DNA from: an uncultured Actinomycetota bacterium
GTDB lineage: Bacteria > Actinomycetota > Thermoleophilia > RBG-16-64-13
Assembly: GCA_963783835.1 (NCBI GenBank)
Contig: CAWAOX010000011.1
Span: forward strand, 1,859 to 65,858
DNA length: 64,000 nt
Reading direction: 5' to 3'
Made by a program: the position numbers and the translations under genes. Each line of letters starts with the position of its first letter. The first letter of the stretch is position 1. This document shows, in pieces, positions 6,019 through 53,733 of this stretch. The notes beneath the pieces are model-generated. The model saw only the letters and a list, made by a program, of their open reading frames with translations, was not told the DNA's origin and did not search any database.

Positions 6019-6047
6019 AAAAAGAAAAGGGCCGCGGTGAGCGGCCC
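6019..6047 (-). terminator. intrinsic terminator downstream of the HU gene
   Basis: The minus strand reads GGGCCGC-tcacc-GCGGCCC followed by TTTTCTTTTT, about 27 nt after the HU stop. Confidence 0.75.
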
Positions 6048-6073
6048 CTTGTGTACTCCTTTTCGCTCCCGCG

Positions 6074-6346: not shown

Positions 6347-6447
6347 AGTAACCCTCCCTTTCGCTCGCCAGTACATCTCAACCTTACCAAATCCTCGCAC
6401 ACGTACAAGCACAATTTAGTGCAAATCTGGGCCAGAAGCCGAATGTT

Positions 6448-6996: not shown

Positions 6997-7004
6997 GGTC
7001 CCTC

Positions 7005-10435: not shown

Positions 10436-10610
10436 CAGCGCCTCCGTTCCCAGAGATGGGCGACCCTTCCGCTTGCTGACCCAAGTTTACCACCGGGTCC
10501 GGACCCTCAAACGAGACGGGGCCGCCGCGGCCCCTGCGCACCTCTCGGTGCACCGGCCGTGGCGGCCCCGAACGGCGGCGCCTCGCGGCGCCCGCCGGCC
10601 GTTGTCTCTC

Positions 10611-12254
<1,644 letters not shown>

Positions 12255-12305
12255 TTACTTACTCTGAGGAACCGACGTCTCGAAAAGCATTGAACGCGAA
12301 GAGGG

Positions 12306-12602
12306 CTACTCTCCGGGCAGCACACCGATGATGTCGGTGAGGCCGCGAAGGACCAGGTACTCTTCCCCATCAAGCTTGAGCTCGGTGCCTGCGTACTTGG
12401 CGAAAACGACGAGATCGCCCGCCTTGACCGGCATGGGGATGAGATCGCCCTTTTCCGAGTATTTGCCCGGACCCACCGCTTCGACCCGCCCTTTGGACGG
12501 CTTCTCTTTGGCCGTGTCCGGAAGGACGATACCAGTCGCGGTCACCTGCTCCTGCTCGATGATCTTGACGACGACCCTGTCCTCGAGTGGCACTAGTTTC
12601 AT
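12306..12602 (-). CDS. groS: co-chaperonin GroES
   Basis: MKLVPLEDRVVVKIIEQEQVTATGIVLPDTAKEKP. The ATG at 12602 is preceded by GGAGGG at a 6-nt spacing; the track start at 12608 is a TTG. Confidence 0.97.
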   Translation of the reverse strand: MKLVPLEDRVVVKIIEQEQVTATGIVLPDTAKEKPSKGRVEAVGPGKYSEKGDLIPMPVKAGDLVVFAKYAGTELKLDGEEYLVLRGLTDIIGVLPGE

Positions 12603-12682
12603 GCGCAACCCTCCTATCCATAGCTTGTTTGACTCTTGCTCTCTTGTGCCTGGAACAGGCAGTTTAAACCTGCCTCACAGAA

Positions 12683-12709
12683 TTGGCACTCTAGCCCACC
12701 GAGTGCCAA
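12683..12709 (-). promoter_or_regulatory. CIRCE operator (HrcA binding site) of groES-groEL
   Basis: TTGGCACTC-N9-GAGTGCCAA is a perfect 9-bp inverted repeat with a 9-nt spacer. It is a close variant of the consensus TTAGCACTC-N9-GAGTGCTAA and lies about 80 nt upstream of groES. Confidence 0.85.
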
Positions 12710-12718
12710 CCGGCGCAT

Positions 12719-12747
12719 ATATTATGCCCAGAGCGAGGATTTGTCAA
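12719..12747 (-). promoter_or_regulatory. sigma-70-type promoter of groES-groEL
   Basis: The minus strand reads TTGACA - 17 nt - TAATAT, immediately upstream of the CIRCE element. Confidence 0.7.
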
Positions 12748-12750
12748 ACG

Positions 12751-35617: not shown

Positions 35618-35693
35618 TGGAGCGGAGTACGGGGGTCGAACCCGCGACATCCAGCTTGGGAAGCTGGCACTCTACCAACTGAGTTAACTCCGC
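35618..35693 (-). tRNA. tRNA-Gly (anticodon CCC), CCA end encoded
   Basis: GCGGAGTTAACTCAGTTGGTAGAGTGCCAGCTTCCCAAGCTGGATGTCGCGGGTTCGACCCCCGTACTCCGCTCCA folds as a cloverleaf by hand. It has a 7-bp acceptor stem, anticodon loop TTCCCAA, T-loop TTCGACC and discriminator U73. Confidence 0.96.
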
Positions 35694-38760: not shown

Positions 38761-39783
38761 CTAGGAGTCGACTTTGGCGGGAGCGACGATGAGCTCCTCG
38801 AGCTTGGTTATCTGGGCCGGGGTGCCGATGGCAATGATCCTGTCGCCGGTGTTCAGGTGCGAGTCGGGGGCGGGGTTGGTGGCAAAGACCCCTGTAGCGG
38901 CGCGCCTCACCGCCAGGATGGTGGCTCCCGTCCGGGAGCGGATCTCAAGGTCGCCGATAGAGCGGCCTATGGCGCAGCACTCTCCACCCAGCTCCAACTC
39001 CTCCACACGGAACTCCAACTCACCCCCGCCGGTCACCACCTCCAAGTAGTCGCTAACGAGCGGCTTGAGCATCAGGGTGGCCATCCGCTTGCCGCCGAGA
39101 CCGTAGGGGGTGACCACGTTGTCGGCGCCGGCCCGCATGAGCTTGCTCACGATGTCCTCCGAGCCCGCCCTCGCGACGATGAGGAGCTTCGGGTTGAGCA
39201 CCCGGGCAGAAAGCGTGAGAAAGATGTTGCCCGCATCCGATCCCAATGCTGCCACCAGGCCCTTCGCGCGCGCAATGCCCGCAATGTGCAGGACGTCGTC
39301 GGCGGTGGCGTCGCCGCTCACCGCCAGGAACCCATCGGCCTCCGCGCGGCTCACGCTCCCCTGATCGCTGTCCACGATGACAAACGGCGCGTTGTGCGCC
39401 GCGAACTGCCGCGCGACGGCCTCCCCTACCCGGCCGTAGCCGCAGACGATGAAGTGCGCGTCCAGCTTGTCCACCTGCCTCTTCACCGCCCTTCTCCGGA
39501 ACACGCCTGTGAGTTGCCCGCCGATAACAAACTCGACCATCCGCCCGATGCCGTAGAGGATGGTGCCCACGCCTCCGATGATCAGGAGCAGCGTGAAGAT
39601 CTGGCCCGCCTGAGAGAGCGGGTGCACCTCTCCGAACCCGACCGTGAAGATAGTGGTCACGGTCATGTAGAGGGAGTCTAGCAGGCTCCAGCCCTCGATC
39701 AGGGCATAGCCGACGGTGCCTATCACGATGATCGCAAGGATCGCCGCGATGACGATGAGCCCGGTCTTCAACTCCCCACGCAT
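38761..39783 (-). CDS. potassium channel protein with RCK (TrkA-N / TrkA-C) domains
   Basis: Two TM segments flank the pore signature TVGFGE. These are followed by the Rossmann motif VCGYGRVG and a TrkA-C-like C-terminus. Confidence 0.88.
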   Translation of the reverse strand: MRGELKTGLIVIAAILAIIVIGTVGYALIEGWSLLDSLYMTVTTIFTVGFGEVHPLSQAGQIFTLLLIIGGVGTILYGIGRMVEFVIGGQLTGVFRRRAVKRQVDKLDAHFIVCGYGRVGEAVARQFAAHNAPFVIVDSDQGSVSRAEADGFLAVSGDATADDVLHIAGIARAKGLVAALGSDAGNIFLTLSARVLNPKLLIVARAGSEDIVSKLMRAGADNVVTPYGLGGKRMATLMLKPLVSDYLEVVTGGGELEFRVEELELGGECCAIGRSIGDLEIRSRTGATILAVRRAATGVFATNPAPDSHLNTGDRIIAIGTPAQITKLEELIVAPAKVDS

Positions 39784-39799
39784 GCCGCCTCAGAACTGA

Positions 39800-40264
39800 C
39801 TAGTGGTGGTACGGCTCTCCGCGCTCGATGCGGATGGCCCGGTACAACTGCTCCAGAACGATACACCGTGCCATCTGATGAGGGAATGTCAGACGCGAAA
39901 GAGACCAGCGCTGGTCCGCCGCGGCGAGGACGCGCGCGTCAAGGCCCGAGGCTCCGCCCAGGAGGAACTGGAAATGACTCTGACCATGCAGCTTCCTCTG
40001 GGCGAGGAACGCGCTCCACTCCTCCGAGGAGTACTGCTGCCCCCGGCTGTCGAGAGCGATGGTATAGGCCCCTTTGCGCAGCAGGCCAAGCAACGCCGTC
40101 CCCTCTTTGGCCCGGGCGTTGTCCTCTCCCCCGGCAAGAGCCGTCTCGGTTACTTCGAAGACCTCGACCTCGGCGTACGGCCGCATGAGTCCCTCGTAGT
40201 GGCGCCAGGCAGGCTGATACTCCCGAGCGAGCCGCCCCACACAGACAAGAGTGAGCCGCGTCAA
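39800..40264 (-). CDS. rlmH: 23S rRNA (pseudouridine1915-N3)-methyltransferase RlmH
   Basis: 154 aa SPOUT protein with FLLGGASGL and the C-terminal IRIERGEPYHH. Confidence 0.9.
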   Translation of the reverse strand: MTRLTLVCVGRLAREYQPAWRHYEGLMRPYAEVEVFEVTETALAGGEDNARAKEGTALLGLLRKGAYTIALDSRGQQYSSEEWSAFLAQRKLHGQSHFQFLLGGASGLDARVLAAADQRWSLSRLTFPHQMARCIVLEQLYRAIRIERGEPYHH

Positions 40265-40282
40265 CCTCGCTCCCCGCGGCGT

Positions 40283-40981
40283 TTAGATGAAGGAGAGGTC
40301 GTCGGGGTCGTCGTCTTCGCGGACCACCGCCCGCTTGCGGCGGCGGCCCCCGAAACTGGAGTCCTTGAGGACGCTCGGCATGTTGCGCCACAGACAGATA
40401 TCCTGCTTGAGATAGCGCGCTTTGATCTTGTCGGAGCACTCCAACGTGCAGCTCAGGCACAGCTCTTCCTCGACGAGAACCTTCTCCCGGCGCGGCCTCT
40501 CCCCCTCGTCTACCCTTCGGTAGGCGTCAAGTAGCAGGTTCTCTACAGAGGTGGACGGCACCACCCGGAAATGGATGCCCCGCGCAGGCACGACGAACCG
40601 GAAGGTCCCCGTGCTCCAGTACATCAACTGCATCACTTGGTCTGCAGCATGCCGGTCGACGATAGACACCAGAGTCGGCGCGTCGGCGTGGGCCGCCTGC
40701 AGAAGGTGCGCCATAAGCGGCTGGCCCTCATCGTCGCTGGACCACCTCATCCAGCATTCCTTGACCTCGGTCTCGGTCAGCGCGCCGGCGGCGACAAGCC
40801 GGGGTCCGAGGTCCTCATCGGCCTGGGCAAGGCTGATCGCCTCGATCCGTCCCGCCGACAGGTACACGGCCCCTTGCTCCTCGAAGTCCTGTATCTCGAG
40901 CACGCCCGTCCGCCGCTGCGTCGCGAGGAACTGCAGCACACCAAAAAGCGGGAACTCGGCTATGTCTCCCCAGAGGATCAC
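40283..40981 (-). CDS. DUF4388 (PATAN-like) domain protein with a C-terminal four-Cys cluster and a basic/acidic tail
   Basis: The N-terminus GDIAEFPLFGVLQFLATQRRTGVLEI is the DUF4388 signature as I recall it. Cys residues are at 175, 178, 182 and 196 (CLSCTLEC ... C). GTG start lies 9 nt after a TAGAAT box. Confidence 0.65.
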   Translation of the reverse strand: MILWGDIAEFPLFGVLQFLATQRRTGVLEIQDFEEQGAVYLSAGRIEAISLAQADEDLGPRLVAAGALTETEVKECWMRWSSDDEGQPLMAHLLQAAHADAPTLVSIVDRHAADQVMQLMYWSTGTFRFVVPARGIHFRVVPSTSVENLLLDAYRRVDEGERPRREKVLVEEELCLSCTLECSDKIKARYLKQDICLWRNMPSVLKDSSFGGRRRKRAVVREDDDPDDLSFI

Positions 40982-41178
40982 TCTTCTCCGATTCTAACGC
41001 ATCAGCCTTTCACTCATATCGGCACGAAGCCGCGGTGGACTAGAGGCTGCAGGCAACCGGTCCGGGCCCCTTGACACGGGGAGTGACAGCACCGAAAATA
41101 CCCAGGGGCGTTTTTGCAAGCGGCAGAGACGTAAACCATAGGTGGCCCGATGCGGTCGCCTGTGCATTTGGGAGGGGG

Positions 41179-41466
41179 ATGCGCATGCTCCACGAGCCTG
41201 CAGCGGTACACGGCGTAGACGAGGCGGCTGCCTACAAGCGGCGCCTTGGACTCAAGATGCTGGCCTTCTACACCGTGCTCTACGTGATCTTCATCATCAT
41301 CAACGTCGTTTGGCCCAAAGCGATGGGCGTTATCGTAGTCGCCGGCCTGAATCTCGCGATCATCTACGGCTTCGCGCTGATCATCATAGCCCTCCTTCTC
41401 GCCCTCCTCTACAACTGGCTGTGCACCAGGCACGAGAAGACCTTCGAGACCGAGGGGAAGGCCTGA
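41179..41466 (+). CDS. yjcH: DUF485 (YjcH-like) small membrane protein, partner of ActP
   Basis: Two TM segments are present, and the stop overlaps the actP start region (TGACATG). The start is either ATG 41179 or ATG 41185, after GGGAGGGGG. Confidence 0.8.
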   Translation: MRMLHEPAAVHGVDEAAAYKRRLGLKMLAFYTVLYVIFIIINVVWPKAMGVIVVAGLNLAIIYGFALIIIALLLALLYNWLCTRHEKTFETEGKA

Positions 41467-41467
41467 C

Positions 41468-43450
41468 ATGGGGGAAGTCTCTGCTCTAGCCGTAGTAATC
41501 TTCATCGTAATAGTCGGGCTTGTCCTTTTCGTATCCTTCTACACAGCCCGGCGGTCTCGCTCCGCCAGCGGATACTACGCAGCGGGTGGACGGATCCACT
41601 GGGGGGTCAACGGCATCGCCTTCGCCGGGGACTACCTATCGGCGGCGTCCTTCCTCGGCATCTGCGGGCTGATCGCCACTGCCGGCTACGACGGCTTCCT
41701 CTACTCGATCGGCTACCTGGCCGGCTGGGTCGTAGCCCTTTTCATCGTTGCCGAGCCCATGCGGCGACTCGGACGCTACACCTTCACCGACGCGCTGGAC
41801 GCGAAGTTCAACAAGCGCAAAGTCAAGCTCTTCGCTGCTCTTGCGACCCTTATCGTCTCCATCTTCTACCTCATCCCGCAGATGGTAGGGGCCGGTGTGC
41901 TCATCGAGCCGCTGCTCGGCTTCCCGTACTGGGTAGGGGTAGTCCTGGTGGGCGTCATCGTCATAACGATCGTCGCTACAGCGGGCATGACGTCGACCAC
42001 GTACGTGCAGTTCATCAAGGGCTCCCTCCTGATCGTCTTCGCTCTCGTGATCGTGATCGCCCTCCTCGTGCGTGGTCTTTCGACCGCCCCCGATCAGGGA
42101 GGCAAAGTCCCGTTCTATGAGTACAAGACGATCACCGCGACCCAGACGAACGGCGTGATAACGCCTACCGACCCCGCCTACACTGTGGCCGGCACGCACG
42201 ACGTACAGGCGAAAGACAAGGTCACCACCTTCGTTCAACTCCAGCATGAGGGCGTCGCCACCTGGTGGAAGGCCACCGCCGCCGCGGATGCCGTGACCCT
42301 GCACGAGACCCAGGAGGTCGTCGTTCAGGAAGACGGCGCCAAGTACATCAACGGCGCGCCGGCGTCCGACGACAACCAGTTGCGGCTGGTAGGGAACATG
42401 AGCCGCATCGAAGGGGAAACGGAGGCCAACACCGGGGCTCTGAGTCCTTTCAGCTACCTGGCCAAGATCGGGGCGCCTGATAGCACGGTCGGTCTTTGGA
42501 AGAAAGCCGCCTGGACGGAAGCCGGTCAATCGATCTCGGTGTACTACGAGTCCCCCGTCCCGGGAGACAGGGTGACGCGGCCCGGCCTGAGCTTCAAAGT
42601 GGAGGGGTCCTGGGTCGACCGGCTCGATTTCGTCTCTCTGATGATCGCGCTGTTCTTGGGTACCGCGGCCCTGCCGCATATCCTCATCCGTTACTACACC
42701 GTTCCCAGCCAGAGGGCGGCGCGGAAGTCGACCGTGGTGGCCATCGCCGCCATCGGCTTCTTCTACGTTCTGACGCTCTTCCTCGGATTGGGGGCGATGA
42801 CCAACGCCACCATCAACGTGCTTGACAACAACATGTCGGCACCGCTGCTGGCGAAGTCGTTCGGGACCTTCCTCTTCGCGATGATCTCCGCCATCGCGTT
42901 TGCCACCGTGCTGGGTACGGTGAGCGGGCTCATCATCGCCGCCTCAGGTGCGGTCGCACATGACCTCATGGACCGCTTCGGAGGCCTTATCAAGACCGAG
43001 CGCCAGAAGGTCGTGGCCGGTCGCGTAAGCGCCTTCGTGGTCGGCGGCATCGCGATCCTCCTGGGACTCGCGTTCCAGGGAATCAACGTGTCGTTCCTGG
43101 TAGGTCTCGCCTTCGCCGTCGCGGCCTCGGCCAACCTGCCCTGCATCATCATGATGCTGTTCTGGAAGCGAACGACCTCCACGGGGATGGTCGCCTCGAT
43201 CATCGTGGGCATCGTCGTCTCGGTCGGTATCATCGTGTTCTCGCCCACCGCATGGGAACTGTACGGGTTGAACCCCGCCGATGCGCCGATCCCGCTCAAG
43301 AACCCGGGCATCATCTCCATCCCGCTGAGCTTCCTCGCCATCTATCTGGTGTCGAAGATGACAAAGCCGGACATGATGGAGGAGCACCGCGCAAGTGCCC
43401 CGAAGGTCACGGCACCGGAGCAGATCGCGGGAACCGTGCCGGCGGAATAG
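41468..43450 (+). CDS. actP: cation/acetate symporter ActP (SSS family) with an enlarged hydrophilic loop
   Basis: Typical ActP blocks are present (GGRIHWGVNGIAFAGDYLSAASFLG, GTAALPHILIRYYT, RKSTVVA). At 660 aa it is longer than usual because of the segment at residues 203-385. Confidence 0.92.
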   Translation: MGEVSALAVVIFIVIVGLVLFVSFYTARRSRSASGYYAAGGRIHWGVNGIAFAGDYLSAASFLGICGLIATAGYDGFLYSIGYLAGWVVALFIVAEPMRRLGRYTFTDALDAKFNKRKVKLFAALATLIVSIFYLIPQMVGAGVLIEPLLGFPYWVGVVLVGVIVITIVATAGMTSTTYVQFIKGSLLIVFALVIVIALLVRGLSTAPDQGGKVPFYEYKTITATQTNGVITPTDPAYTVAGTHDVQAKDKVTTFVQLQHEGVATWWKATAAADAVTLHETQEVVVQEDGAKYINGAPASDDNQLRLVGNMSRIEGETEANTGALSPFSYLAKIGAPDSTVGLWKKAAWTEAGQSISVYYESPVPGDRVTRPGLSFKVEGSWVDRLDFVSLMIALFLGTAALPHILIRYYTVPSQRAARKSTVVAIAAIGFFYVLTLFLGLGAMTNATINVLDNNMSAPLLAKSFGTFLFAMISAIAFATVLGTVSGLIIAASGAVAHDLMDRFGGLIKTERQKVVAGRVSAFVVGGIAILLGLAFQGINVSFLVGLAFAVAASANLPCIIMMLFWKRTTSTGMVASIIVGIVVSVGIIVFSPTAWELYGLNPADAPIPLKNPGIISIPLSFLAIYLVSKMTKPDMMEEHRASAPKVTAPEQIAGTVPAE

Positions 43451-43541: not shown

Positions 43542-44597
43542 CTAGAACACGTCCTTCGCGCGCAACGGGTAACCCGTGTATCCCGCCGTGGCGTAGTACA
43601 CCGCCCGGTCGAAGAAGCGGCCGAGTTCCCGGTTCAGGTCCACCGCCCGCTGTAAGTCCATCGCCGACTCCCACACGCCGTGCGTCCGGGCCGACATCCA
43701 GATCTCGCGCTTGAGCAGGAGAATGGCACTGACCAGTTCGGGCAACGGCAAGCCCTGGGCCGCGCGAGTGGTGCCCAGCTTGTAGAAAAAGGTGCCGATA
43801 TCGGATTCGCTCGGCTTTCCGGTGAAGTACTCCTCGACCTGAGTCAATGCGAACTCACTGGCCGTGACCAACTCTTCATCGCTGACCACTCCGTATGAGG
43901 GGGTCTGCGGACTGACCCGGAGGGCGTCCAGCCACATAGTGGCGATCTCTTCCCCGAAGTCCTGGACGAAACCCGTGGGCAGTTGGCTGACCGGCCCGAG
44001 GGGAAGGAGCACGCGCTTGTAGGTCTCGTTGAGGATCTGGGCCATGGCTGCATACACCGCGGCGAGCCCGACAAAGATCCCCTCATATCCGGCGATCTTG
44101 CCCACCGTGGCCCCGGCGCCAAAATCACGAGCGGCGAGCAGGAAGAACAGGATGGTGAGCGAACCGAACACCACCTGCAGGGCCCGGTTCAACTTGAGCG
44201 TCCCGACGAACATATAGGCGGTGAAGACGCCCCAGGCCACGAAGAACCACGCCAGGGCGGTCTCACTGGTAGCGGTGGCGGCGCTGGCCCCCTCGAATAT
44301 CGTGGGGAAGAGCCAGATACCGGCCAGAGTGAGCCAGAAGAAACCGTAGGACGTGAACGCGAGCGTCCCGAACGTGTTGTTCTTCCTCCACTCCATCACG
44401 CCCGCGATGATCTGCGCCATCCCCCCGTAGAAGATGCCCATGGCGAGGATCATGGCGTTGAGTTCGAAGAACCCGGCGTTGTGAAGGTTGAGAAGGACAG
44501 TGGTAAGGCCGAACCCCATGAGCCCCAGAGGGGCAGGGTTCGCGTTCGTGTCCAGTAGTTTGGTGACTGTATCGGTGGAGGCGAATGGATTAGCCAT
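43542..44597 (-). CDS. satP: SatP/YaaH (GPR1/FUN34) acetate-succinate channel fused to a C-terminal RsbR-N-like (non-haem globin-like) domain
   Basis: Residues 1-200 carry [21 protein letters not shown] and six TM segments. Residues 205-351 are soluble and helical ([11 protein letters not shown] ... [27 protein letters not shown] ... [11 protein letters not shown]). Confidence 0.82.
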
Positions 44598-44810
44598 CTT
44601 TCGTGTCTACTCTCCTTTGCTCAAGCGGGTCCGGAACACTGCTGCCGGCCGCTTCCGCTACCCCCCCTCAGGGTGCACGTCCGAGCAGCGCGACAATATA
44701 CTTAGACAGACCGGGGTTGTCCACCTCTGCGCGGGATTCTTGTAGAATGTCCGCTGGTCTGGGTTCGACGCGAAGGAGCTTCTTGCTGGGCCGAGAGGAC
44801 GCCGTCTCCT

Positions 44811-45602
44811 GTGAGTGAAACGATCCGCATAGACTTGCACTGCCACTCGTCGGCCAGCGACGGCGATCACTCGCCGGCGAATGTGGCGAGGCGGCTGGCC
44901 GACATCGGGGTCACGTGGGCCTCCCTGACCGACCACAACACGGTGGAAGGGCAGGATGAGTTCCGAGCGGCCCTGGGACGACACGGCATCGCCTATATCC
45001 CAGGGGTCGAGATCGACGCCCGGTCGCCGTTCGGAGTTCTTCACGTGCTCGCGTACGGCATCGATCTGAATAACGCGCCCCTGCTGGCCGTACTGCGTAC
45101 CGTACGAGAGCCGTGGCGGTCATCGGCCCGCCGTTGGCTCGATAGGATCCGTTCCCCGCGTCGAGACTCCGAGTCGTTCGCGGCCCCCTGCGAACCGGCC
45201 GAAACGAACGGCGGACCGCAGGGCCCGCTGACCACACAGCGAGCCATCTGTCTTGTGCATGAGGCTGGAGGACTCACTTTCCTCGCCCATCCGCTCGAGA
45301 GTCTGCGAAGCTTCAAGAGGCTCGAGGAAGCCCTCGATCTCCTGCAGGCGGAGGGACTGGACGGACTCGAAGTTTTCCACAAGTCGTATCCTGAGGGCGT
45401 TCGGGCCGCGCTTCTGGCGCTGGCCGCGAGGCGGGGCCTCGTCCCTACAGGAGGCAGCGATTTTCATGGTCTGGCCCACTCCGACGGGGCAAGCCTCGGC
45501 GTCGACGTGCCCGTTGAAGAATGGGATCGCATGGTCAAGTATCTAGGGAAACTGCGGGGGCCGGTGTCTTTGGCGGCCTCCGGAAGCAAGAAGACGAACT
45601 GA
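44811..45602 (+). CDS. PHP-domain metal-dependent phosphoesterase (TrpH/YciV-like)
   Basis: IDLHCHSSASDG, LTDHNT, GVEID, FLAHP and GGSDFHG are present. GTG start. Confidence 0.85.
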   Translation: MSETIRIDLHCHSSASDGDHSPANVARRLADIGVTWASLTDHNTVEGQDEFRAALGRHGIAYIPGVEIDARSPFGVLHVLAYGIDLNNAPLLAVLRTVREPWRSSARRWLDRIRSPRRDSESFAAPCEPAETNGGPQGPLTTQRAICLVHEAGGLTFLAHPLESLRSFKRLEEALDLLQAEGLDGLEVFHKSYPEGVRAALLALAARRGLVPTGGSDFHGLAHSDGASLGVDVPVEEWDRMVKYLGKLRGPVSLAASGSKKTN

Positions 45603-45611
45603 GGAGGGGGT

Positions 45612-48548
45612 TTGGATACCACGGAGCAATCAAGGAGCGACGCCTCGCGAGCAAGACGCAGTTTTATCCTGCGGGTCGTGCTGCCTGCCGTTTTGGCGGT
45701 GATCCTGTTCATCCTCGCGACGTTCCTCCTCTTGATCCCGGCCGTCGAGAGCCAGATGCTCGAGGGCAAGAAGGAGACGACACAGGAACTCACCCGGTCG
45801 GCCATCAGCATCATCGATGAGTACTACCGCGAAGAGGTAGCGGGGATCCGCACCCGAGAGCAGGCGCAGGCAGAGGCCAAGGTCCGGATCGAGCAACTCC
45901 GGTGGGGAGACGAGGGTAAGGACTACTTCTGGATAACCGACATGCACCCCACCATGATCATGCATCCCTACCTGCCCGAACTGGACGGACAGGACCTGAC
46001 CAACTACACGGACAAGGCCGGTAACGAATTGTTCGTGGAGATGGTCGACGTTGTGCAGAAGGACGGATCCGGATACGTCGAGTACTACTGGCAGTACAAG
46101 GATGACCCCAGCCAAATCGTCCGCAAGCTCTCCTACGTCGAGGCCTTCAGTCCCTGGCAGTGGGTGGTCGGGACCGGCATCTACCTGGACGACGTGGACG
46201 CAGCGATCGCAAGCGTGCAGCGCAACCTGATCTATGTCTCCCTGGGGATCGCCATTCTTGTCGCCTTACTCCTGCTCTACAGCGGACGCCAGAGCCTCAA
46301 GATCGAGAGAAGAAGGGCGGCCGCCGAGAAGGGCCTCCACGAGTCCAACGAGAAGTACCGGGCGCTTGTAGAGGCTGCTACCGAGGGTCTTCTCATGGCG
46401 TTGGGCGGGAAGGCGACATACGCCAACGCGCCCCTACTCGATATGCTTGGCTACACGGCGGACGAACTCACCGACGTCGACGTGAGTGACCTGTTCGTTC
46501 CTGAAGAGACCGACGAGAAGCCGATCGCGCTTCTAACGAGCGGCGCTCAAGAGGGAGTGCCGGAGAACTTCGAGGCCACCCTGAAGACGAAAGACGGCCG
46601 GCCGCTCGACGTGCTCGTCGCTACGACGCCCATCTCGCTCGGCGGTAGGAACGGATTCATCCTCATGGTGCGAAGCCTGACCGCCCAGAAGGCCCTCGAG
46701 GCCGCCGACAGCGGCCAACCGTTCAAGACGATGTCCGACGCCCTCAGCCTGGGCGTCTTCCGCAGCACCTGGGGCCGTAAGACCGCCCTCATGGAGGTCA
46801 ATCCTGCCATGCGCTCCATACTCGGCCTCCCCGTGACCGCCAATATGACGGGTGCCGACTGGCTGGACAGGATCATCGAACCCGAGCAGCGAAGCGCCCT
46901 GGTCGCCACTCTGGGCAGAGACAAGGCGGTGCAGAACTACCACTTGGGCCTCCGCCGCGAGGATGGTGGGCGGGCCGACGTCTCGCTGTTCGCGGTGCTG
47001 GTCGAGCGACAGGACGGCCAGCCGGCCTACGTTGACGGCATCCTCGAGGACATATCCAGGCAGCGGAAGAGCGAGGAGGAGCGGGAGGCGCTGATAGCCC
47101 AACTTCAGACGTCGCTCTTCTTCCTGCGCGAGCCTCTCACTCAGGCGGTTACCCCCGCCCTCTCCGTCGACATGAACGAGACGGTGGGACGGACCGCGGT
47201 GCTGATGAAGAAGAACCGGACGACGGCCTCATTTGTGACTGGCCCCGACGGAACCCTCATGGGTATCGCCACGGATCATGACTTCCGCGAGCGCGTCGTG
47301 AGCGAAGGTCTCGACCCGCAGAGCCCGGTGCGCGCCATCATGAGCGCTCCCGTGGCTTCCATTGCGACCGACGCGCCCATCTATGAAGCACTCCAGCGGA
47401 TGCAGGAGCGCGACGTCGACCACCTGGCCGTGCTCGACGCGTCGGGCAAGCTGCAGGGAGCCGTCCACCTTCGTGACCTCACCCGCTACCAGCAGTCCTC
47501 GTCGGTGATCATCACCGATTCGATTCGGCGGGGTCGCTCGGTCGGCGACATAGTGGAGGCTCACGACCGCCTGCCTGGGCTGGTCACGGCCGTCGTCGAT
47601 TCTGGCGCCGACACGAGATATGTGAACAGGATCGTCTCAAACGTCTCCGACGCGGTTGTGCAGAAGCTCATCGACATGGCGATCGAGAAACTCGGTCCGC
47701 CGCCGGTGCGGTTCGCCTTCCTGACCCTCGGGAGCGAAGGTCGTGAGGAGCAGACTCTCCTTACCGACCAGGACAACGCTCTTCTCTACGACGATCCCGA
47801 ACCCGAGAAGTCCAAAGAGGTGGCCGACTACTTCCTCTCGATGGGAACGCTGGTCTGCGATTGGCTCGACGAGGTCGGTTACGCCTACTGCGAAGGCGGC
47901 ATCATGGCAAAGAACCCGCGGTGGAACCTGCCGCGGGCCCTTTGGCGCCAGCAGTTCTCGCACTGGATCCACAACGCCGATCCGCAGGAACTCCTGGAGC
48001 TCAACATGGCGTTCGACTTCCGCTGCGTAAACGGCGAGCAGCAGTTTGCGCGCGACCTCCGGGCCTGGGTATTCGACCAGATGGAGGACTACCCGCTCTT
48101 CTTCCTGCACTTCGCCCAGAACGCGCTGCTCTACAAACCTCCGATCACGTTGCTCGGGAATATCCAGACGACGTCTTCCGGTGACGGGACGAAGGCTCTC
48201 AACCTCAAAGAGGCGTTGATGCCTATCGTCAACTTCTCGCGGCTCTACGCTCTGCGCCACCGGATCGATTCGACCAACACCCTCGACCGGTTGACCGAGC
48301 TTCGCGATAGAGGCGTGCTCAGCCGGGAATCGTATGACCAGATGTTCCCCGACTACGAAAGTCTCATGCGCATACGGCTCCGCCGGCAGGCGGTCGCTAT
48401 CGAGGAGGGTGGCTCGCCCACCAACCTCATCACGCCGGAGGAACTCACTTCGGCCGAAGAGGCGAGACTCAAGCGCCTGTTCTCGGTCTCTGCCGACCTC
48501 CGCAAGAAGATCAGCTACGACTTCCTGGGAGGCATCGCCGGATTCTAG
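45612..48548 (+). CDS. membrane sensor protein: TM - Cache-like - TM - PAS - PAS - CBS pair - DUF294 nucleotidyltransferase
   Basis: 978 aa. Cache-like block YFWITDMHPTMIMHPY ... YVEYYWQYK. PAS-like blocks lie around residues 245-485. The CBS pair spans residues 505-625. The NTase motif is LGSEGREEQTLLTDQDNAL (47730..47774). The TTG start lies 9 nt after the PHP gene. Confidence 0.85.
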   Translation: MDTTEQSRSDASRARRSFILRVVLPAVLAVILFILATFLLLIPAVESQMLEGKKETTQELTRSAISIIDEYYREEVAGIRTREQAQAEAKVRIEQLRWGDEGKDYFWITDMHPTMIMHPYLPELDGQDLTNYTDKAGNELFVEMVDVVQKDGSGYVEYYWQYKDDPSQIVRKLSYVEAFSPWQWVVGTGIYLDDVDAAIASVQRNLIYVSLGIAILVALLLLYSGRQSLKIERRRAAAEKGLHESNEKYRALVEAATEGLLMALGGKATYANAPLLDMLGYTADELTDVDVSDLFVPEETDEKPIALLTSGAQEGVPENFEATLKTKDGRPLDVLVATTPISLGGRNGFILMVRSLTAQKALEAADSGQPFKTMSDALSLGVFRSTWGRKTALMEVNPAMRSILGLPVTANMTGADWLDRIIEPEQRSALVATLGRDKAVQNYHLGLRREDGGRADVSLFAVLVERQDGQPAYVDGILEDISRQRKSEEEREALIAQLQTSLFFLREPLTQAVTPALSVDMNETVGRTAVLMKKNRTTASFVTGPDGTLMGIATDHDFRERVVSEGLDPQSPVRAIMSAPVASIATDAPIYEALQRMQERDVDHLAVLDASGKLQGAVHLRDLTRYQQSSSVIITDSIRRGRSVGDIVEAHDRLPGLVTAVVDSGADTRYVNRIVSNVSDAVVQKLIDMAIEKLGPPPVRFAFLTLGSEGREEQTLLTDQDNALLYDDPEPEKSKEVADYFLSMGTLVCDWLDEVGYAYCEGGIMAKNPRWNLPRALWRQQFSHWIHNADPQELLELNMAFDFRCVNGEQQFARDLRAWVFDQMEDYPLFFLHFAQNALLYKPPITLLGNIQTTSSGDGTKALNLKEALMPIVNFSRLYALRHRIDSTNTLDRLTELRDRGVLSRESYDQMFPDYESLMRIRLRRQAVAIEEGGSPTNLITPEELTSAEEARLKRLFSVSADLRKKISYDFLGGIAGF

Positions 48549-48573
48549 GGACGGAATCTATCGACGGTTCTCC

Positions 48574-48612
48574 GAGCGGCCGGCGCCCAAGCGCCGGCCG
48601 CTCGCTTTTGTT
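48574..48612 (+). terminator. intrinsic terminator after the sensor-NTase gene
   Basis: GAGCGGCCGGCGC-ccaa-GCGCCGGCCGCTC followed by GCTTTTGTT. Confidence 0.75.
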
Positions 48613-48678: not shown

Positions 48679-49533
48679 TTAGCCGGCCTGCGCGCGAACG
48701 CGCCGCCTGGCCCGCCACACCACGCCCTTTCGCGGCGCGAACAGGAAGGCGATGACAAAGATGCACGTGGCGATGAGCACCATCGAGCCGCTCGTTGAGA
48801 CACCCAGGTAGTAGCTCGCGTACAGCCCACCCACTGCCGGGATGACACCAAGCAGCGCCGACAGGGCCATCATGGTGGGAAGCCGGCGGGTGAGCAGATA
48901 GGCCGTCGCCGGAGGAGTGATGAGCATCGCGGCGACAAGAGCCACGCCGACCGTCTGCAGCGCCACCACGATGGTGACCGCAAGCATGAGGAACAACCCC
49001 GTGCGCAGGGCGTTTGTGTGTAGACCCAAGGTCTTGCCCAGGATAGGGTCGAACGACACCACGAGCAGTTGCTTGTACAGCAGCGCAATCGCCACCAGCA
49101 CGCCGAGGGCCAGCAGTCCGGTCAGCCAGAGATCGGCAGCAGTCACGCCGAGGACGTTGCCGAAAAGCACGTGGGTCAGGTCCACCGCGTACGTGTGCAT
49201 CGTGCTGATGAGCACCACTCCCAGGGCCAGTGCGGCCGCGAAGAATATCCCGATAGCGGTGTCTTCCTTGATGGTGCCCGCCCGGGACACGTAGCTGATT
49301 CCCACGGCGACCAGTACCGCGGCGACCAACGCTCCTGCAATGAGGTTGACTCCCAGTAGGTACGCCACCGCGACTCCGGGCAGGATCGCGTGGGCCAGGG
49401 CGTCCCCGAGAAAGGCCATGGAACGGAGGACGATGTAGCAGCCGATGACCGCGCAGACGACGCCCACAATCACGGAAGCGATCAAAGCCTTCTGCATGAA
49501 GCCGAAGGTGAAGGGCTCGGTGAGCCAGGTGAT
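48679..49533 (-). CDS. metal (Zn/Mn/Fe) ABC transporter permease, ABC-3 family
   Basis: Polytopic, with LTEPFTFGFMQKALIAS at the N-terminus. The start is set to GTG at 49533, overlapping the ATPase stop (GTGA). Confidence 0.9.
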   Translation of the reverse strand: MTWLTEPFTFGFMQKALIASVIVGVVCAVIGCYIVLRSMAFLGDALAHAILPGVAVAYLLGVNLIAGALVAAVLVAVGISYVSRAGTIKEDTAIGIFFAAALALGVVLISTMHTYAVDLTHVLFGNVLGVTAADLWLTGLLALGVLVAIALLYKQLLVVSFDPILGKTLGLHTNALRTGLFLMLAVTIVVALQTVGVALVAAMLITPPATAYLLTRRLPTMMALSALLGVIPAVGGLYASYYLGVSTSGSMVLIATCIFVIAFLFAPRKGVVWRARRRVRAQAG

Positions 49534-50318
49534 CACCGCGGCTCCCCCCGACCGCTGTCGATTCCGCCGCAGCACTGATCGACGACGACCATCCTGCCGT
49601 CGACGACCACCATCTGCCCTCCGAAAGCTGCCTGCAGATTCCGTTCGGTGAACACTTCTGCCGGGCTTCCGGCGGCGATGAGGCGTCCGCTCAGGAGGAC
49701 CACCTGGTCGAAGCGGTCGGCGGCCAGATCGAGATCATGAGTCGAGACCAGGACCGTCACGCCGAGTGGCCGCAGCCCCGCCAGCACATCGAGGGTCGCT
49801 TCGCGAGTCCCGAGGTCCACGCCGGTGAAGGGCTCGTCGAGGAGCAGCGCCTGCGGCTGCTGGGCCAACGCCCTCGCCAGGAAGACACGCTGTTGCTGGC
49901 CGCCGGAAAGCTCGCCGATGGAGCGGTGCCCGAGATCGCCGATCCCCAACTGCTCCATCGACTCGTGGATGACCTGGCGGTCCGACCGCGAAAGGCGTCT
50001 GAGCCATCTGCCGGGACCGTAGCGACCCATCGCGACGACGTCGAAGACTGTGACGGGGAAGCGCCAATCGACTTCCTCGCGCTGGGGCACATACGCGATG
50101 TCCCGATGCTCGCCGAGAGGCGTGCCCCCGATGAGCATCTCGCCGGCCGCGAGGGGTAGCAGACCCACCATGGCCTTGAAGAGGGTCGATTTGCCGGCTC
50201 CGTTGGGACCGACGATGGCCACCTGTGCGGCCCGGTCGACGGAGAGCGACACCGAGTCGAGGGCCGGCCGGGTGCCGTAGAAGACCGTTACGTCGCGAAA
50301 CTCGATGCGCTCGCTCAT
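49533..50318 (-). CDS. metal ABC transporter ATP-binding protein
   Basis: Walker A GPNGAGKST, signature LSGGQQQR and Walker B LLLDEP. The ATG at 50318 overlaps the upstream stop (ATGA). Confidence 0.92.
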   Translation of the reverse strand: MSERIEFRDVTVFYGTRPALDSVSLSVDRAAQVAIVGPNGAGKSTLFKAMVGLLPLAAGEMLIGGTPLGEHRDIAYVPQREEVDWRFPVTVFDVVAMGRYGPGRWLRRLSRSDRQVIHESMEQLGIGDLGHRSIGELSGGQQQRVFLARALAQQPQALLLDEPFTGVDLGTREATLDVLAGLRPLGVTVLVSTHDLDLAADRFDQVVLLSGRLIAAGSPAEVFTERNLQAAFGGQMVVVDGRMVVVDQCCGGIDSGRGEPR

Positions 50319-51226
50319 CGGAGCGCCTCGACGATGCGGTCCACGTTCCACCTCATCATGTCGAGATACGTCGGAGCGTTCTCGGCCAAGGAGTGAGTGT
50401 ACAGGTCGGTCACGACCTTCACGCCGGTCTCACGCGCCACCTGGCTCGCCAGATCGGGATTGCTGCCCGTCTCGAGGAAGATTGCGGGGGCGCCGCTCGC
50501 CCGGATGTCGTCGATCAGCGTACCGAGCGCCTGCGCGGACGGCGCGCCCTCCGCGTCTCCGGTGGGAAACACCGTCCCCACCACCTCGAAACCGTAGCGG
50601 TCGGCGAAGTGGCCGAAGCTCTCATGGTTCGTCACCAGCAGTCTGCGCGATGCGGGGATGGTCGCGACCCGGGCGGTCGTCCAGGAATCGAGGTCGCGCA
50701 GTTGCCGCTCGTAGGCGGCGGCGTTCGCCGCATACTCGCCGGCGCCCTCAGGGTCGATCGCCGTGAGACCCGCCCGAATATTCTCGACATAGGTGATCAC
50801 GTCCATCGGGTCCAGCCAGAAATGCGGGTCGGCGTTCTCACCGGCCAACCCCTTCGCCGCGTCTATCACCGCCAGACTCCCGCCCCCAGCGCCGGCGATG
50901 AGTTTGTCGACCGGCGGCTCGAACCCCGGGCTGTTGATCACGATGGCCCGGGCTTTGGCCACCTTGGCTGCGTCCCGCGGCGTCGGGTCGAAACTGTGCG
51001 GATCGGTCCCCAGAGGCAGCAACGATTCCACCTTCACCCTGTCTCCGGCAACGTTCTGCGCTATGTCGGCTAGGTAGCTGGTCTCGGCCACGACGAACGG
51101 CGCCGAGGAGACCGGCTCGGACGTCGAAGGTCCCGAGGGCACGGAGCCGCCGCACGCGGAGACCACCGCGGCGGCCGCCAGAACAAGGACCATCACGAAA
51201 GTGTGTTTGATCGCGACAGCGTTCAT
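50315..51226 (-). CDS. metal ABC transporter substrate-binding lipoprotein (ZnuA/TroA/MntC family)
   Basis: Lipobox AVVSACGG is present, together with the DPHFWLDP motif. Confidence 0.9.
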   Translation of the reverse strand: MNAVAIKHTFVMVLVLAAAAVVSACGGSVPSGPSTSEPVSSAPFVVAETSYLADIAQNVAGDRVKVESLLPLGTDPHSFDPTPRDAAKVAKARAIVINSPGFEPPVDKLIAGAGGGSLAVIDAAKGLAGENADPHFWLDPMDVITYVENIRAGLTAIDPEGAGEYAANAAAYERQLRDLDSWTTARVATIPASRRLLVTNHESFGHFADRYGFEVVGTVFPTGDAEGAPSAQALGTLIDDIRASGAPAIFLETGSNPDLASQVARETGVKVVTDLYTHSLAENAPTYLDMMRWNVDRIVEALR

Positions 51227-51897
51227 AGCCGCGCGCGTGCCACTCGTTCGAGAAGCGCCCGGTCCTTGATGACTACCTTGCGGCCCGTGGTCTCGACCGC
51301 CCCTGCTCGGGTGAGTTGCTTGAAGGCCCGGGATAGCGTTTCGGGCACCGTGCCCACCGTGGCCGCCAACTCGCCCCTGGAGATCCCGAGGTCGACGGTC
51401 ATGGTGGAGGACTTACCCTCCGGGGCAAGCGACAGCAGGTAGGCTGCCAGCCGCTCCGCGACTCCCTTGAGCGACAGATCCTCGATGAGTGAGGCGAACG
51501 ATCTCAGGCGGGCAGAGAGAGCCGCGAGCAGGCGGAGTGCGACCTCCGGCTGGCTGCGGATCAGTTCGATGAAGGCGTCACGCGGCATGTAGAACGTCTC
51601 CGTGGTCTCGAGAGTCTCGGCGCTGGCCGGAAAACTCTCGCCCGACAGCGCCGCCACTTCCCCCACCGGTTCTCCGGGTCCCATCACCATGAGCGTCTGC
51701 GCCCGTCCTTGAGAAGAGCTCTTGAACACCTTGACCCTCCCGTGGATGACCACGTGGAGCCCCCTGGCGGCGTCGCCCTGGAGGAAGATCGCCTGACCGG
51801 CGGCAAAAAGACGGAGACGGCCCCGGCGCACGACTTCGAGAACGGCTGCCTCGTCCACCCCGGAAAAGAGGCTCCCCTGCCGCAGGATCCCGATCAA
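51223..51897 (-). CDS. Crp/Fnr-family transcriptional regulator without Cys (HcpR-like candidate)
   Basis: A cNMP-binding-like beta-barrel is followed by the HTH ISRGELAATVGTVPETLSRAFKQL (E--SR recognition motif). The protein has no cysteine, so it is not an Fe-S FNR. Confidence 0.88.
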   Translation of the reverse strand: MIGILRQGSLFSGVDEAAVLEVVRRGRLRLFAAGQAIFLQGDAARGLHVVIHGRVKVFKSSSQGRAQTLMVMGPGEPVGEVAALSGESFPASAETLETTETFYMPRDAFIELIRSQPEVALRLLAALSARLRSFASLIEDLSLKGVAERLAAYLLSLAPEGKSSTMTVDLGISRGELAATVGTVPETLSRAFKQLTRAGAVETTGRKVVIKDRALLERVARARL

Positions 51898-51982
51898 TTC
51901 CTGCTGCAGCGTCGTCGCCGGACGTGCGCGATCCTGGTTCGTCTTGCCACCCCCGTTTGAGTCCCAAAAGAACAGCGGACTA

Positions 51983-51998
51983 CTTGACTTAGGTCAAG
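51983..51998 (+). promoter_or_regulatory. FNR/CRP-type palindrome CTTGAC-N4-GTCAAG in the divergent crp-like / hcp intergenic region
   Basis: Perfect 6-bp arms with a 4-nt spacer, followed about 17 nt later by TATGTT. It lies about 104 nt upstream of the hcp ATG. Confidence 0.55.
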
Positions 51999-52101
51999 GG
52001 AAGGTCCGAGCGACTATGTTAGCCTCTGAGTGGGAAAAAGAGCACGATGCTCGCCATCACGGGGATGGCGGAGCGTTCTGCGCGAGAAATGGAGGACGCT
52101 G

Positions 52102-53733
52102 ATGTTTTGTTATCAATGTGAGCAGACGTCGAAATCGACGGCCTGTACGGTGAGGGGCGTGTGCGGCAAGAACGACGACGTGTCCGCCATCCAGGATGCC
52201 CTGGTGTACGCCCTCAAGGGCCTGGCGCTCGTGGCCGAAAAGGCCGCGCCTGCAGGCGTGGTGCCGGCCGATACCTATCCGTTCCTAGAGGAGGGCCTCT
52301 TCACTACGCTGACCAACGTCAACTTCGATCCCGAAGCCTTGACCGATTGGGTGCGGAAGACCGTGGACCGGCGGGAGAAGATCAAGACGGCTCTGGACGC
52401 CAAGCAGCCCGGCGTGACCTTCCCGGAGGGGCCGGCCACCTTTGTCGCCGGCTATACCTCGGCCGATGTCGCCGAGCAGGGCCGGGCGCACGACGTCAAC
52501 ATCGAAGCATCGACTGACGAGAACGTCCGCTCGCTGCAGCACACCGTCCTCTACGGCCTCAAGGGAGTGGCCGCGTACGCCCATCACGCTCACGAGCTCG
52601 GCTACCGTGACGAAGCCGTCGACGCCTATCACGTCGAGGCGATGGCCGACCTCGCTCGCTACGACGAGGGCGACCTGAACGATTGGCTCGGCAAAGCGAT
52701 GCGCTGTGGCGAGATGAACTACAAGACGATGGAACTGCTCGACCGGGCGAACACCGAGACCTTCGGAATACCGGTACCGACCGAGGTGCCGCTGGGCGTC
52801 AAGGCCGGCAAGGCCATCCTGGTCTCCGGACACGACCTCCTCGACCTCCAGGAGCTGCTCAAGCAGACCGAAGGCAAGGGCATAACGGTCTACACCCACG
52901 GCGAGATGTTGCCGACACACGCCTATCCGAAGCTCAAGCAGTACCCGCACCTCTACGGCAACTTCGGCACCGCCTGGCACAACCAGATCAAGGAGTTCCC
53001 CAAGTTCCCGGGCGCCATCCTGATGACCACCAACTGCATCCGAGAGCCGCAGGATTCCTACTTCGACAGCATCTTCACGCGGTCCACCGTCGGCTGGCCG
53101 GGAGTCACCCACCTCGACGGCCGCGACTTCACCGCCGTCATCGAGAAGGCTCTCGAGATGCCGGGCTTCCCCGAGGACGTCCCCGGCAAGACCGTGCATG
53201 TGGGCTTCATGCGGAACGCCGTTCTCTCCCACGCCGAAAAGATCATCGAGCTCGTCAAAGCCGGCAAGATCCGCCACTTCTTCCTGGTCGGCGGGTGTGA
53301 CGGCGCCAAGCCGGGCCGCAACTACTACACCGAGTTCGTGGAAAAATCGCCGGACGACACGATCATCCTGACCCTGGCCTGCGGCCGCTACCGCTTCTAC
53401 GACATGGACCTGGGTTCGATCGACGGCATACCGCGCCTGCTCGACATGGGTCAGTGTAACGACGCCTATTCGGCCATCCAGGTCGCGCTGGCCTTGGCCG
53501 ACGCGTTCCAGGTGGGAGTCAACGACCTGCCCCTCACCCTGGTCCTGTCCTGGTACGAGCAGAAAGCCGCGGCCATCCTGCTGACCCTGCTCTACCTGGG
53601 TCTGAAGGACATCCGGCTTGGCCCCACGCTGCCGGCCTTCCTCACTCCGGACGTGGCCAAGTACATCGTCGACACCTACAACCTGCAGCCCATCACCACG
53701 GCGGACGAAGACCTGGCGGCGATGCTCGCGTAG
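52102..53733 (+). CDS. hcp: hydroxylamine reductase / hybrid-cluster protein
   Basis: N-terminal Cys motif MFCYQCEQT ... ACTVRGVCGK, and 543 aa in length. The ATG at 52102 follows GGAGGA; the track start at 52030 is an upstream GTG. Confidence 0.96.
   Translation: MFCYQCEQTSKSTACTVRGVCGKNDDVSAIQDALVYALKGLALVAEKAAPAGVVPADTYPFLEEGLFTTLTNVNFDPEALTDWVRKTVDRREKIKTALDAKQPGVTFPEGPATFVAGYTSADVAEQGRAHDVNIEASTDENVRSLQHTVLYGLKGVAAYAHHAHELGYRDEAVDAYHVEAMADLARYDEGDLNDWLGKAMRCGEMNYKTMELLDRANTETFGIPVPTEVPLGVKAGKAILVSGHDLLDLQELLKQTEGKGITVYTHGEMLPTHAYPKLKQYPHLYGNFGTAWHNQIKEFPKFPGAILMTTNCIREPQDSYFDSIFTRSTVGWPGVTHLDGRDFTAVIEKALEMPGFPEDVPGKTVHVGFMRNAVLSHAEKIIELVKAGKIRHFFLVGGCDGAKPGRNYYTEFVEKSPDDTIILTLACGRYRFYDMDLGSIDGIPRLLDMGQCNDAYSAIQVALALADAFQVGVNDLPLTLVLSWYEQKAAAILLTLLYLGLKDIRLGPTLPAFLTPDVAKYIVDTYNLQPITTADEDLAAMLA

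Follow-up and report, generated by a model that had tools for sequence, protein, structure and literature searches.

A Cache-type DUF294 nucleotidyltransferase with interchangeable phosphoesterase partners, encoded beside monocarboxylate symporters

We analysed a window of 64,000 nt (the whole stretch of DNA, positions 1,859 to 65,858 of contig CAWAOX010000011.1, assembly GCA_963783835.1) from an uncultured Actinomycetota bacterium of the Thermoleophilia, and in it two adjacent plus-strand genes, one for a phosphoesterase of the PHP family and one for a transmembrane sensor nucleotidyltransferase (NTase). The PHP gene (44811–45602) starts with GTG and, from the list of open reading frames (ORFs) and its translation, codes for 263 aa, in which the motifs HCHSSASDG, TDHN, EID, FLAHP and GGSDFHG can be read. 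The sensor gene (45612–48548) codes for 978 aa and starts with TTG, 9 nt after the PHP stop, the gap containing a GGAGG ribosome-binding site. Both ORFs, their coordinates, the motifs and the 9-nt gap were found just as a preliminary description of this DNA, made from the letters alone, had given them. A strong intrinsic-terminator-like hairpin closes the PHP-sensor operon (48573–48604, plus strand), with a 14-bp stem containing 13 GC pairs, followed by CTTTTGTT. The two ORFs share a reading frame, with one TGA and 9 nt between them (45600–45611), and read-through there would restore a fused PHP-sensor protein known from homologues; the split is genuine, because other split loci have the two ORFs in different frames.

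Pfam recovered most of the domain order that had been proposed for the 978-aa protein, namely a first transmembrane segment (TM1), sCache_2, a second transmembrane segment (TM2), PAS, a PAS-like repeat, a CBS pair, DUF294 and DUF294_C; the second PAS is weak and lies under the Pfam cutoff. The extracytoplasmic sCache_2 domain (residues 51–204; 45762–46223, plus strand; PF17200, E = 7.9e-41) is flanked by hydrophobic segments at residues ~18–45 and ~206–225. The cytoplasmic PAS region (46350–47057, plus strand) consists of the first PAS (residues 247–357; Pfam match over 247–354, E = 3.5e-16) and the PAS-like stretch (~387–482, E = 0.005–0.009), TIGR00229 also giving two stretches. The CBS pair (~515–627; 47154–47492, plus strand) is matched by Pfam CBS in two stretches (E = 1.2e-17) and by CBS proteins in the PDB. 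Pfam gave no match to a cNMP_binding domain in this protein.

The solved structures nearest to the Cache domain are PscD-SD (5G4Y/5G4Z; PDB 5g4y, E = 1.2e-35) and 4k08 (E = 1.8e-32), which is Adeh_3718 crystallised with acetate; a Vibrio domain solved with pyruvate is another relative. The ligands of PscD are glycolate, acetate, propionate and pyruvate, contacted by Y90, W92, H103, F126, Y143, W145 and K156 (PMC5062169). These align to Y105, W107, H118, F141, Y158, W160 and K172 of the sensor, all seven identical, and the seven pocket residues are invariant across 18 diverse family members. A complete PscD-type pocket, kept throughout the family, strongly predicts a C2/C3 monocarboxylate (acetate, propionate, pyruvate or glycolate) as the ligand, in agreement with the external carboxylate input supposed in the preliminary description. 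The protein thus resembles the sCache_2 chemoreceptors PscD, McpP and Adeh_3718 in contact residues and in similarity to solved domains, and differs from them in carrying an NTase as output in place of an MCP (methyl-accepting chemotaxis protein) signalling domain, and in that its ligand is predicted here from sequence.

The output module (47568–48524, plus strand) comprises the DUF294 NTase domain (residues 653–792; PF03445, E = 1e-46, 158.6 bits against a cutoff of 21) and the helical DUF294_C domain (829–971; PF10335, E = 2.7e-37, 128.2 bits against 22.5), which belongs to the KNTase_C clan alongside the C-domains of GlnD and GlnE. Positions 47730–47774 code for exactly G707–D721 of the sensor (GSEGREEQTLLTDQD), and the pol-beta NTase signature is intact, with G707, S708, R711, D719, D721 and D802 invariant in 18 diverse homologues. 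We compared an AF2 model of the module (residues 636–978, pLDDT 89, pTM 0.86) with the PDB by Foldseek. The sole significant matches were DrrA/SidM and the AT and AR domains of GlnE (6yx5_B, 3k7d, 1v4a), with E ~1.7e-6 and TM-scores of 0.59–0.62; cGAS, CCA and PAP enzymes were not among the Foldseek matches, and a TUTase reached a TM-score of 0.16. The sensor sequence has no Pfam or NCBIfam match to the GlnE, GlnD or GlnD_UR_UTase models, and neither phmmer nor a profile search of the PDB found a solved DUF294 structure. The module shares with GlnE and DrrA/SidM the NTase fold, a motif of the type G-x-G-R-x-E...[ST]-D-x-D and a KNTase_C-type helical domain; unlike GlnE, GlnD and DrrA, it has no sequence-level membership of their families, no PII, GS or Rab context, and an extracellular ligand input. 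The GlnE/DrrA fold match, together with KNTase_C membership, favours transfer of a single nucleoside monophosphate (NMP) to a protein hydroxyl and makes a small-molecule acceptor less likely.

The PHP protein (Pfam PHP, E = 1.4e-8, 35.7 bits against a cutoff of 26.4) has a barrel of the TrpH/RNase AM type with a degenerate insertion subdomain. Its nine metal ligands (H10, H12, D17, H42, E67, H78, H160, D217 and H219) are kept without exception in 11 split or fused partners. The top Foldseek match of its AF2 model (pLDDT 83 overall, 43–55 across the insertion at residues 101–140) is 7ug9, a PHP-only RNase AM construct, with an rmsd of 1.9 Å. Relative to 3e0f, ~35 residues of the insertion subdomain are deleted; the segment is missing from the fused PHP of P0025 and P0086, and the TrpH-type insertion is variable or missing among partners. 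Because the insertion is shortened, modelled with low confidence and missing in several fused forms, substrate recognition likely differs from that of TrpH/RNase AM. The top NCBIfam matches, nucleoside-bisphosphate phosphatase and RNase AM, fall far under the equivalog cutoffs (NF041577, 103.7 against 400; NF047791, 92.7 against 375). Stand-alone PHP partners (255–270 aa) form a clade of their own at 45–93% identity, and a sharp gap separates this clade (≥45%) from generic TrpH proteins (280–300 aa), which are ≤35% identical to the PHP partner. The window protein is therefore like TrpH/YciV (RNase AM) and the 3',5'-nucleoside-bisphosphate phosphatase Cv1693 in barrel and metal ligands, and unlike them in clade, in its sub-equivalog scores and in its shortened insertion.

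A homologue search with the sensor returned 748 proteins at E ≤ 1e-10, the best 120 of which, examined for architecture, have the full domain set at 41–87% identity. In a scan of one genome per species, sensor-NTase loci were present in at least 593 species genomes from ~15 phyla, and among the loci scanned the best 80 all span residues ~15–975. The closest carriers belong to the window's own lineage, Actinomycetota/Thermoleophilia (68–81% identity); further carriers are found in Sumerlaeota, Myxococcota, Gemmatimonadota, Acidobacteriota, NC10, Bacteroidota, Ignavibacteriota, Chlorobiota, Calditrichota, Desulfobacterota, Elusimicrobiota, Spirochaetota and others, nearly all of them metagenome-assembled genomes (MAGs). 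A profile of the NTase module matched 5,809 representative clusters among 1.84 billion proteins, in several length classes; close relatives of the module occur in classes of ~850 aa and ~1,060–1,120 aa, presumably with other sensor combinations. In one close relative (L010, ~10001–12908) the sensor gene is interrupted and only a 522-aa C-terminal ORF is intact, which points to a frameshift, a pseudogene or faulty assembly. A locus in a MAG labelled Merismopediaceae cyanobacterium (L033) is syntenic with, and ~85% identical to, Desulfocapsaceae/Desulfofustis loci, and its contig is probably mis-binned.

We examined the surroundings of the sensor gene at 83 non-redundant loci, clustering all ORFs without prior labels and annotating the clusters by Pfam and NCBIfam; any phosphoesterase fused to the sensor or within 500 nt of it was taken as a partner. 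Such a partner was found at 65 of the 83 loci: Metallophos, that is, a calcineurin-like metallophosphoesterase (MPE), at 29, PHP at 18, a GAF-HD-GYP protein at 9, AP_endonuc_2 at 8–9, and a DnaQ domain fused N-terminally to the sensor at 1 (L073). N-terminal PHP fusions of 1,190–1,260 aa occur in P0025, P0030, P0043, P0076-79, P0082, P0085-88 and others; since the fused PHP precedes TM1, it is cytoplasmic. Fused and split PHP forms are mixed inside one PHP-associated clade. The MPE partners comprise three groups without mutual BLAST similarity and occur in three gene arrangements: upstream with an overlap (16 loci), downstream in convergent orientation (12 Bacteroidota loci), and downstream, overlapping the sensor stop (Geobacteraceae and Leptospirales). 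All three groups retain the DxH, GD, GNH[DE] and GH motifs. The GAF-HD-GYP partner, present at nine Desulfocapsaceae loci, is a true HD-GYP protein with its motif intact, and the EndoIV/CbiR-like AP_endonuc_2 partner is convergent with the sensor.

Partner type tracks sensor subclades that span phylum borders, and the pairing of the sensor-NTase with an interchangeable phosphoesterase is obligate. That unrelated phosphoesterases have been recruited repeatedly indicates that the conserved need is the hydrolysis of a phosphoester linked to the NTase product. In the window the PHP protein does hold the place of nuclease partner given to it in the preliminary description, and its distinct clade, its fusion in many homologues and its co-inheritance across phyla mark it as a dedicated one; family-wide, it is one of at least five alternative phosphoesterases.

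The second constant feature of the neighbourhood is transport. An SSF transporter with a small subunit (DUF485 or DUF4212) occurs at 57 of the 83 loci, and of the 45 loci flanked by 5 kb or more on each side, 36 have an SSF gene within 5 kb, often co-directional and with a median gap of 1.4 kb; independent gene calls concur with this neighbourhood. DUF294 thus co-occurs across phyla with phosphoesterase partners and with actP-type transporters, as had been anticipated. The background given in the preliminary description, of DUF294 proteins usually joined to cNMP-binding and CBS modules, partnered by DnaQ/RNase T and lying beside actP, also held, except for the nearness of acs: no acs-sized conserved cluster lies within 10 kb of these loci. 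In the window, the pair indeed follows yjcH-actP and a satP fusion, although satP is read from the minus strand, diverging from the pair instead of running in the same direction. At 22 loci in diderm phyla the symporter is followed by a conserved gene of ~430 aa (for instance L048 7838–9139, L084 14392–15492 and L085 13431–14741), whose product has a signal peptide, a C-terminal Phe and weak DcaP and Porin_O_P matches, and is probably a carboxylate porin of the outer membrane.

DUF294/COG2905 proteins have been predicted to be 'signal-transducing nucleotidyltransferases' since 1999, and a September 2026 preprint gives no known activity for those of cNMP-CBS-DUF294 type. The latter (COG2905; PA3233, PP_0354, Pflu5625) occur in Pseudomonas, Vibrio and Shewanella with an RNase T/DnaQ-like partner (PA3232, PP_0353), belong to the CrbS/R (MxtR/ErdR) acetate regulon, lie beside actP-yjcH, are induced on acetate and propionate and are cofit with SSF symporters; in pseudomonads few genes depend as strongly on the acetate/propionate regulator as they do. 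The window sensor is like them in having a CBS pair directly before the NTase (29% identity over the CBS pair and NTase start to the canonical member of locus L085), an adjacent phosphoesterase/nuclease partner, and a yjcH-actP or DUF4212-SSF neighbourhood. It is unlike them in its input, a transmembrane sCache_2 plus PAS in place of a cytoplasmic cNMP-binding domain, and in its partner, which is PHP (elsewhere MPE, HD-GYP or EndoIV-like) and often fused, instead of DnaQ; the Cache type also occurs chiefly in uncultivated Actinomycetota, Acidobacteriota, FCB, Desulfobacterota and others. The Cache-type branch is a previously undescribed form of the known, uncharacterised cNMP-CBS-DUF294 and RNase T pair, and the searchable literature holds no paper describing a Cache-type DUF294 architecture or alternative partners. 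At L085 a canonical cNMP-CBS-DUF294 gene (5438–7273) lies directly upstream of a Cache-type gene and a DUF485-SSF-porin operon; the canonical copy, whose degenerate NTase motif (GAAGRRESGWPPRPAG) has lost the DxD, looks like a pseudo-enzyme paralogue.

MctS/MctR-MctP and CrbS/R likewise have a Cache-type or SSF-linked sensor beside a monocarboxylate SSF transporter, and the MctS sensor region matches residues 42–239 of the window sensor (E = 6e-27). Unlike these histidine-kinase/response-regulator systems, which act on transcription, the window pair has no kinase, receiver or DNA-binding domain.

GlnD combines an NTase and an HD hydrolase, writer and eraser in one protein, and SidD reverses the modification made by DrrA. 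With GlnD, GlnE and DrrA/SidD as precedents, and given the domain architecture and catalytic motifs, the PHP fusions, the repeated swapping of partners, the distinct PHP clade, the transporter link, the Cache pocket, the fold of the NTase module and the proteobacterial DUF294 and RNase T genes of the CrbS/R regulon, we tentatively propose, as the best-supported reading, that the PHP and 978-aa genes form a two-gene operon for a receptor-type nucleotidyltransferase switch, in which a protein nucleotidylyltransferase and a phosphodiesterase would act as writer and eraser and tune monocarboxylate uptake; this is a real possibility, short of one on which we would rely. What we infer for ligand, nucleotide, protein acceptor, target, direction of regulation and the role of the PHP protein is the following. 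The sCache_2 domain would bind a C2/C3 monocarboxylate (acetate, propionate, pyruvate or glycolate) outside the cell, and the signal would be relayed via TM2 and the two PAS-type domains. Cytoplasmic inputs would act at the PAS domains and would join at the CBS pair, there probably as adenine nucleotides, the combined inputs setting the activity of the GlnE/DrrA-like pol-beta NTase formed by DUF294 and the KNTase_C-type helical domain. As writer, the NTase would most probably add an NMP (AMP or UMP) to a protein hydroxyl, the candidate targets being the sensor, a subunit of the transporter or some other protein; as eraser, the trinuclear-metal PHP phosphoesterase would hydrolyse the resulting phosphodiester. 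The switch would serve the adjoining uptake machinery (DUF485-ActP/MctC, and SatP in the window's lineage), so that uptake might be matched to external supply and internal energy state. A bolder form of the proposal, that the family is a new class of transmembrane receptor AMPylase/UMPylase in which an extracellular short-chain acid gates protein nucleotidylylation, with a dedicated, interchangeable de-nucleotidylylase (PHP, MPE, HD-GYP, DnaQ or EndoIV-like) and with SSF symporters controlled post-translationally across more than 15 phyla, is possible but rather doubtful.

The chemistry of the writer/eraser pair is plausible, being favoured by the GlnE/DrrA fold, but several points weigh against it. 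A fold match at a TM-score of ~0.6 indicates clan kinship and not substrate class, and the searchable literature holds no biochemical datum on any DUF294 protein. The nearest characterised relatives of the partners (RNase AM, DnaQ/RNase T, HD-GYP and YfcE-/EndoIV-like enzymes) act on nucleic acids or nucleotides and are not known from protein adducts, a kinship that leaves room for RNA or nucleotide substrates. About 18 of the 83 loci are without an adjacent phosphoesterase, several of them having short flanks, and the loci hold no conserved gene for a PII-like target. Likewise, the alignment of the DUF485 N-terminus revealed no conserved cytoplasmic Tyr, and such a residue was dropped as a candidate acceptor. 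Since the partners are kin to RNases, nucleotide phosphodiesterases and DNA-end processors, two rival explanations stay live.

One of them is tailing of RNA ends or oligonucleotides, by which the NTase would extend the 3' end of an RNA controlling the symporter operon and the partner nuclease would trim it. The partners are kin to exoribonucleases or to enzymes that process nucleic-acid ends (RNase AM, RNase T/DnaQ, EndoIV-like or Mre11-superfamily), and there are precedents for the combination: PolX and Pol III are cases of a pol-beta NTase paired with PHP or DnaQ, and the CCA enzyme is paired with RNase T. Price et al. also put forward, as speculation, that symporter expression requires the COG2905/RNase T genes. 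However, the NTase model is like GlnE and DrrA and unlike CCA-adding enzymes, PAP and TUTases, and its C-terminal domain belongs to a clan whose members act on proteins or small molecules. Rfam and ARAGORN found no riboswitch or other structured RNA at the locus, their sole match being a tRNA-Gly at 35618–35693, and the sensor is often co-transcribed with the transporter, which is a better fit to post-translational control. We regard RNA tailing as unlikely.

We assign a similarly low probability to a second messenger, a diffusible nucleotide that the NTase would make on sensing external acetate and of which the partner would be the phosphodiesterase, with Crp-type regulators or, in the proteobacterial form, the cNMP-binding domain as receptors. 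Every partner fold has known messenger phosphodiesterases (HD-GYP, class III MPE-type, DnaQ/PHP oligoribonucleases), canonical DUF294 proteins bear a cNMP-binding domain, and at ~12–17 Bacteroidota loci the sensor and the DUF485-actP operon have a Crp-family gene between them. Yet this Crp link is restricted to a single phylum and the HD-GYP partner to a single family. Messenger synthases that join a GlnE-like NTase to KNTase_C are not known, and similarity to cGAS/CD-NTases is absent. Fusion of a synthase with its hydrolase fits a writer/eraser pair equally.

Nucleotidylylation of a small molecule, in which the hydroxyl of a metabolite or toxin would be adenylylated as by aminoglycoside NTases and the PHP protein would recycle the adduct, is very improbable: ANT(3'')(9), AadA and kanamycin NTase, of the same KNTase_C clan, do appear as second-tier Foldseek matches of the module, but these matches are weak (E > 0.05, TM-score ~0.3), and the elaborate sensory input and transporter linkage point to signalling and not to detoxification. 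Incidental adjacency of a housekeeping TrpH/pAp phosphatase and an inactive NTase scaffold is the least credible explanation and is largely refuted by the fusion and conservation data, because, against the top NCBIfam matches of the PHP protein and the L085 paralogue without DxD, there stand PHP-sensor fusions in many lineages, a PHP clade apart from TrpH, a PHP score far under the equivalog cutoff and NTase catalytic residues invariant in 18 homologues. A reading as an anti-phage defence system was dropped, PADLOC defence models having matched neither the PHP nor the sensor protein.

The Cache-type branch offers three handles that canonical DUF294 proteins lack: an input ligand that can be predicted with confidence (C2/C3 carboxylates), natural fusions that identify the partner enzyme, and a partner repeatedly swapped for unrelated phosphoesterases. 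These make the function of the DUF294 family directly testable. Should the writer/eraser proposal be true, nucleotidylylation would become one of the few output chemistries coupled to receptors in bacteria, and a post-translational layer would be added to short-chain-fatty-acid uptake in many anaerobic and uncultivated lineages; a receptor AMPylase/UMPylase, if real, would be the first function for the whole DUF294/COG2905 family.

The symporter operon of the window begins with a gene for a DUF485 (YjcH-like) small subunit (~41179–41466, plus strand; Pfam DUF485 E = 3.2e-9, 37.1 bits against a cutoff of 28). Its start is possibly at 41185 (MLHEPA...), the N-terminal MLHEPA being kept in 45 relatives; the gene stops 1 nt ahead of the actP ATG, and a promoter-like site lies at 41071–41099. 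An ORF at 41142–41489 was rejected as yjcH, since it is spurious, with an Arg-rich nonsense product without Pfam match, and the real DUF485 is in the frame of 41071–41466. The ActP/MctC-like SSF symporter itself (41468–43450, plus strand, 660 aa; Pfam SSF E = 2.3e-71) is matched in NCBIfam by MctC (E = 2.5e-130) and ActP (E = 2.3e-121), each in two stretches and under the equivalog cutoffs. It has an insertion of ~165 aa after its sixth transmembrane segment (42068–42565) without Pfam match, and the ActP homologues associated with the sensor, at a median of 640 aa, exceed the ~550 aa of classical ActP. The insertion is probably extracytoplasmic; we ruled it out as a cytoplasmic target domain, as positive-inside topology would put it outside the cell.

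The satP gene (43542–44597, minus strand), divergent from the PHP operon, codes for a SatP/AceTr acetate channel (NF038013 AceTr_1, 264 bits against a cutoff of 50; Gpr1_Fun34_YaaH, E = 5.7e-38) with a C-terminal RsbRD_N-like domain (43545–44000; RsbRD_N, E = 3.4e-4, and 4.8e-5 in the L005 orthologue). This fusion to an RsbRD_N-like, non-haem globin-type cytoplasmic domain was observed only in the window's actinobacterial lineage, at 9 loci. The 213-bp divergent promoter region between satP and the PHP gene (44598–44810) contains, by promoter scan, a satP promoter on the minus strand (44723–44695) and, upstream of the PHP gene, the 13-nt ATTCTTGTAGAAT (44736–44748), a 5-3-5 inverted repeat that includes TAGAAT. 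The satP promoter and ATTCTTGTAGAAT are conserved among eight related loci whose remaining intergenic DNA has diverged; TAGAAT is likely the -10 element of the PHP operon, and the repeat is possibly also an operator.

Downstream, convergent with the sensor operon, lie znuB, znuC, znuA, a Crp/Fnr-family regulator and hcp (48679–53733); hisG is also downstream. The satP and znuABC neighbourhood is specific to the window's lineage. We discarded a general znuABC link, given that ZnuB and ZnuC occur together only in that lineage and at two Desulfocapsaceae loci, the remaining 'ZnuC' being generic ABC ATPases; a general Crp link was discarded as well, being confined to Bacteroidota, with the window's Crp gene past znuABC and none in L001 and L002. 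On the other side, genes for a Kch/TrkA-type potassium channel and a DUF4388 protein (38761–40981, minus strand) lie between argS and the yjcH-actP operon, and the channel-argS synteny is retained in L001 and L002.

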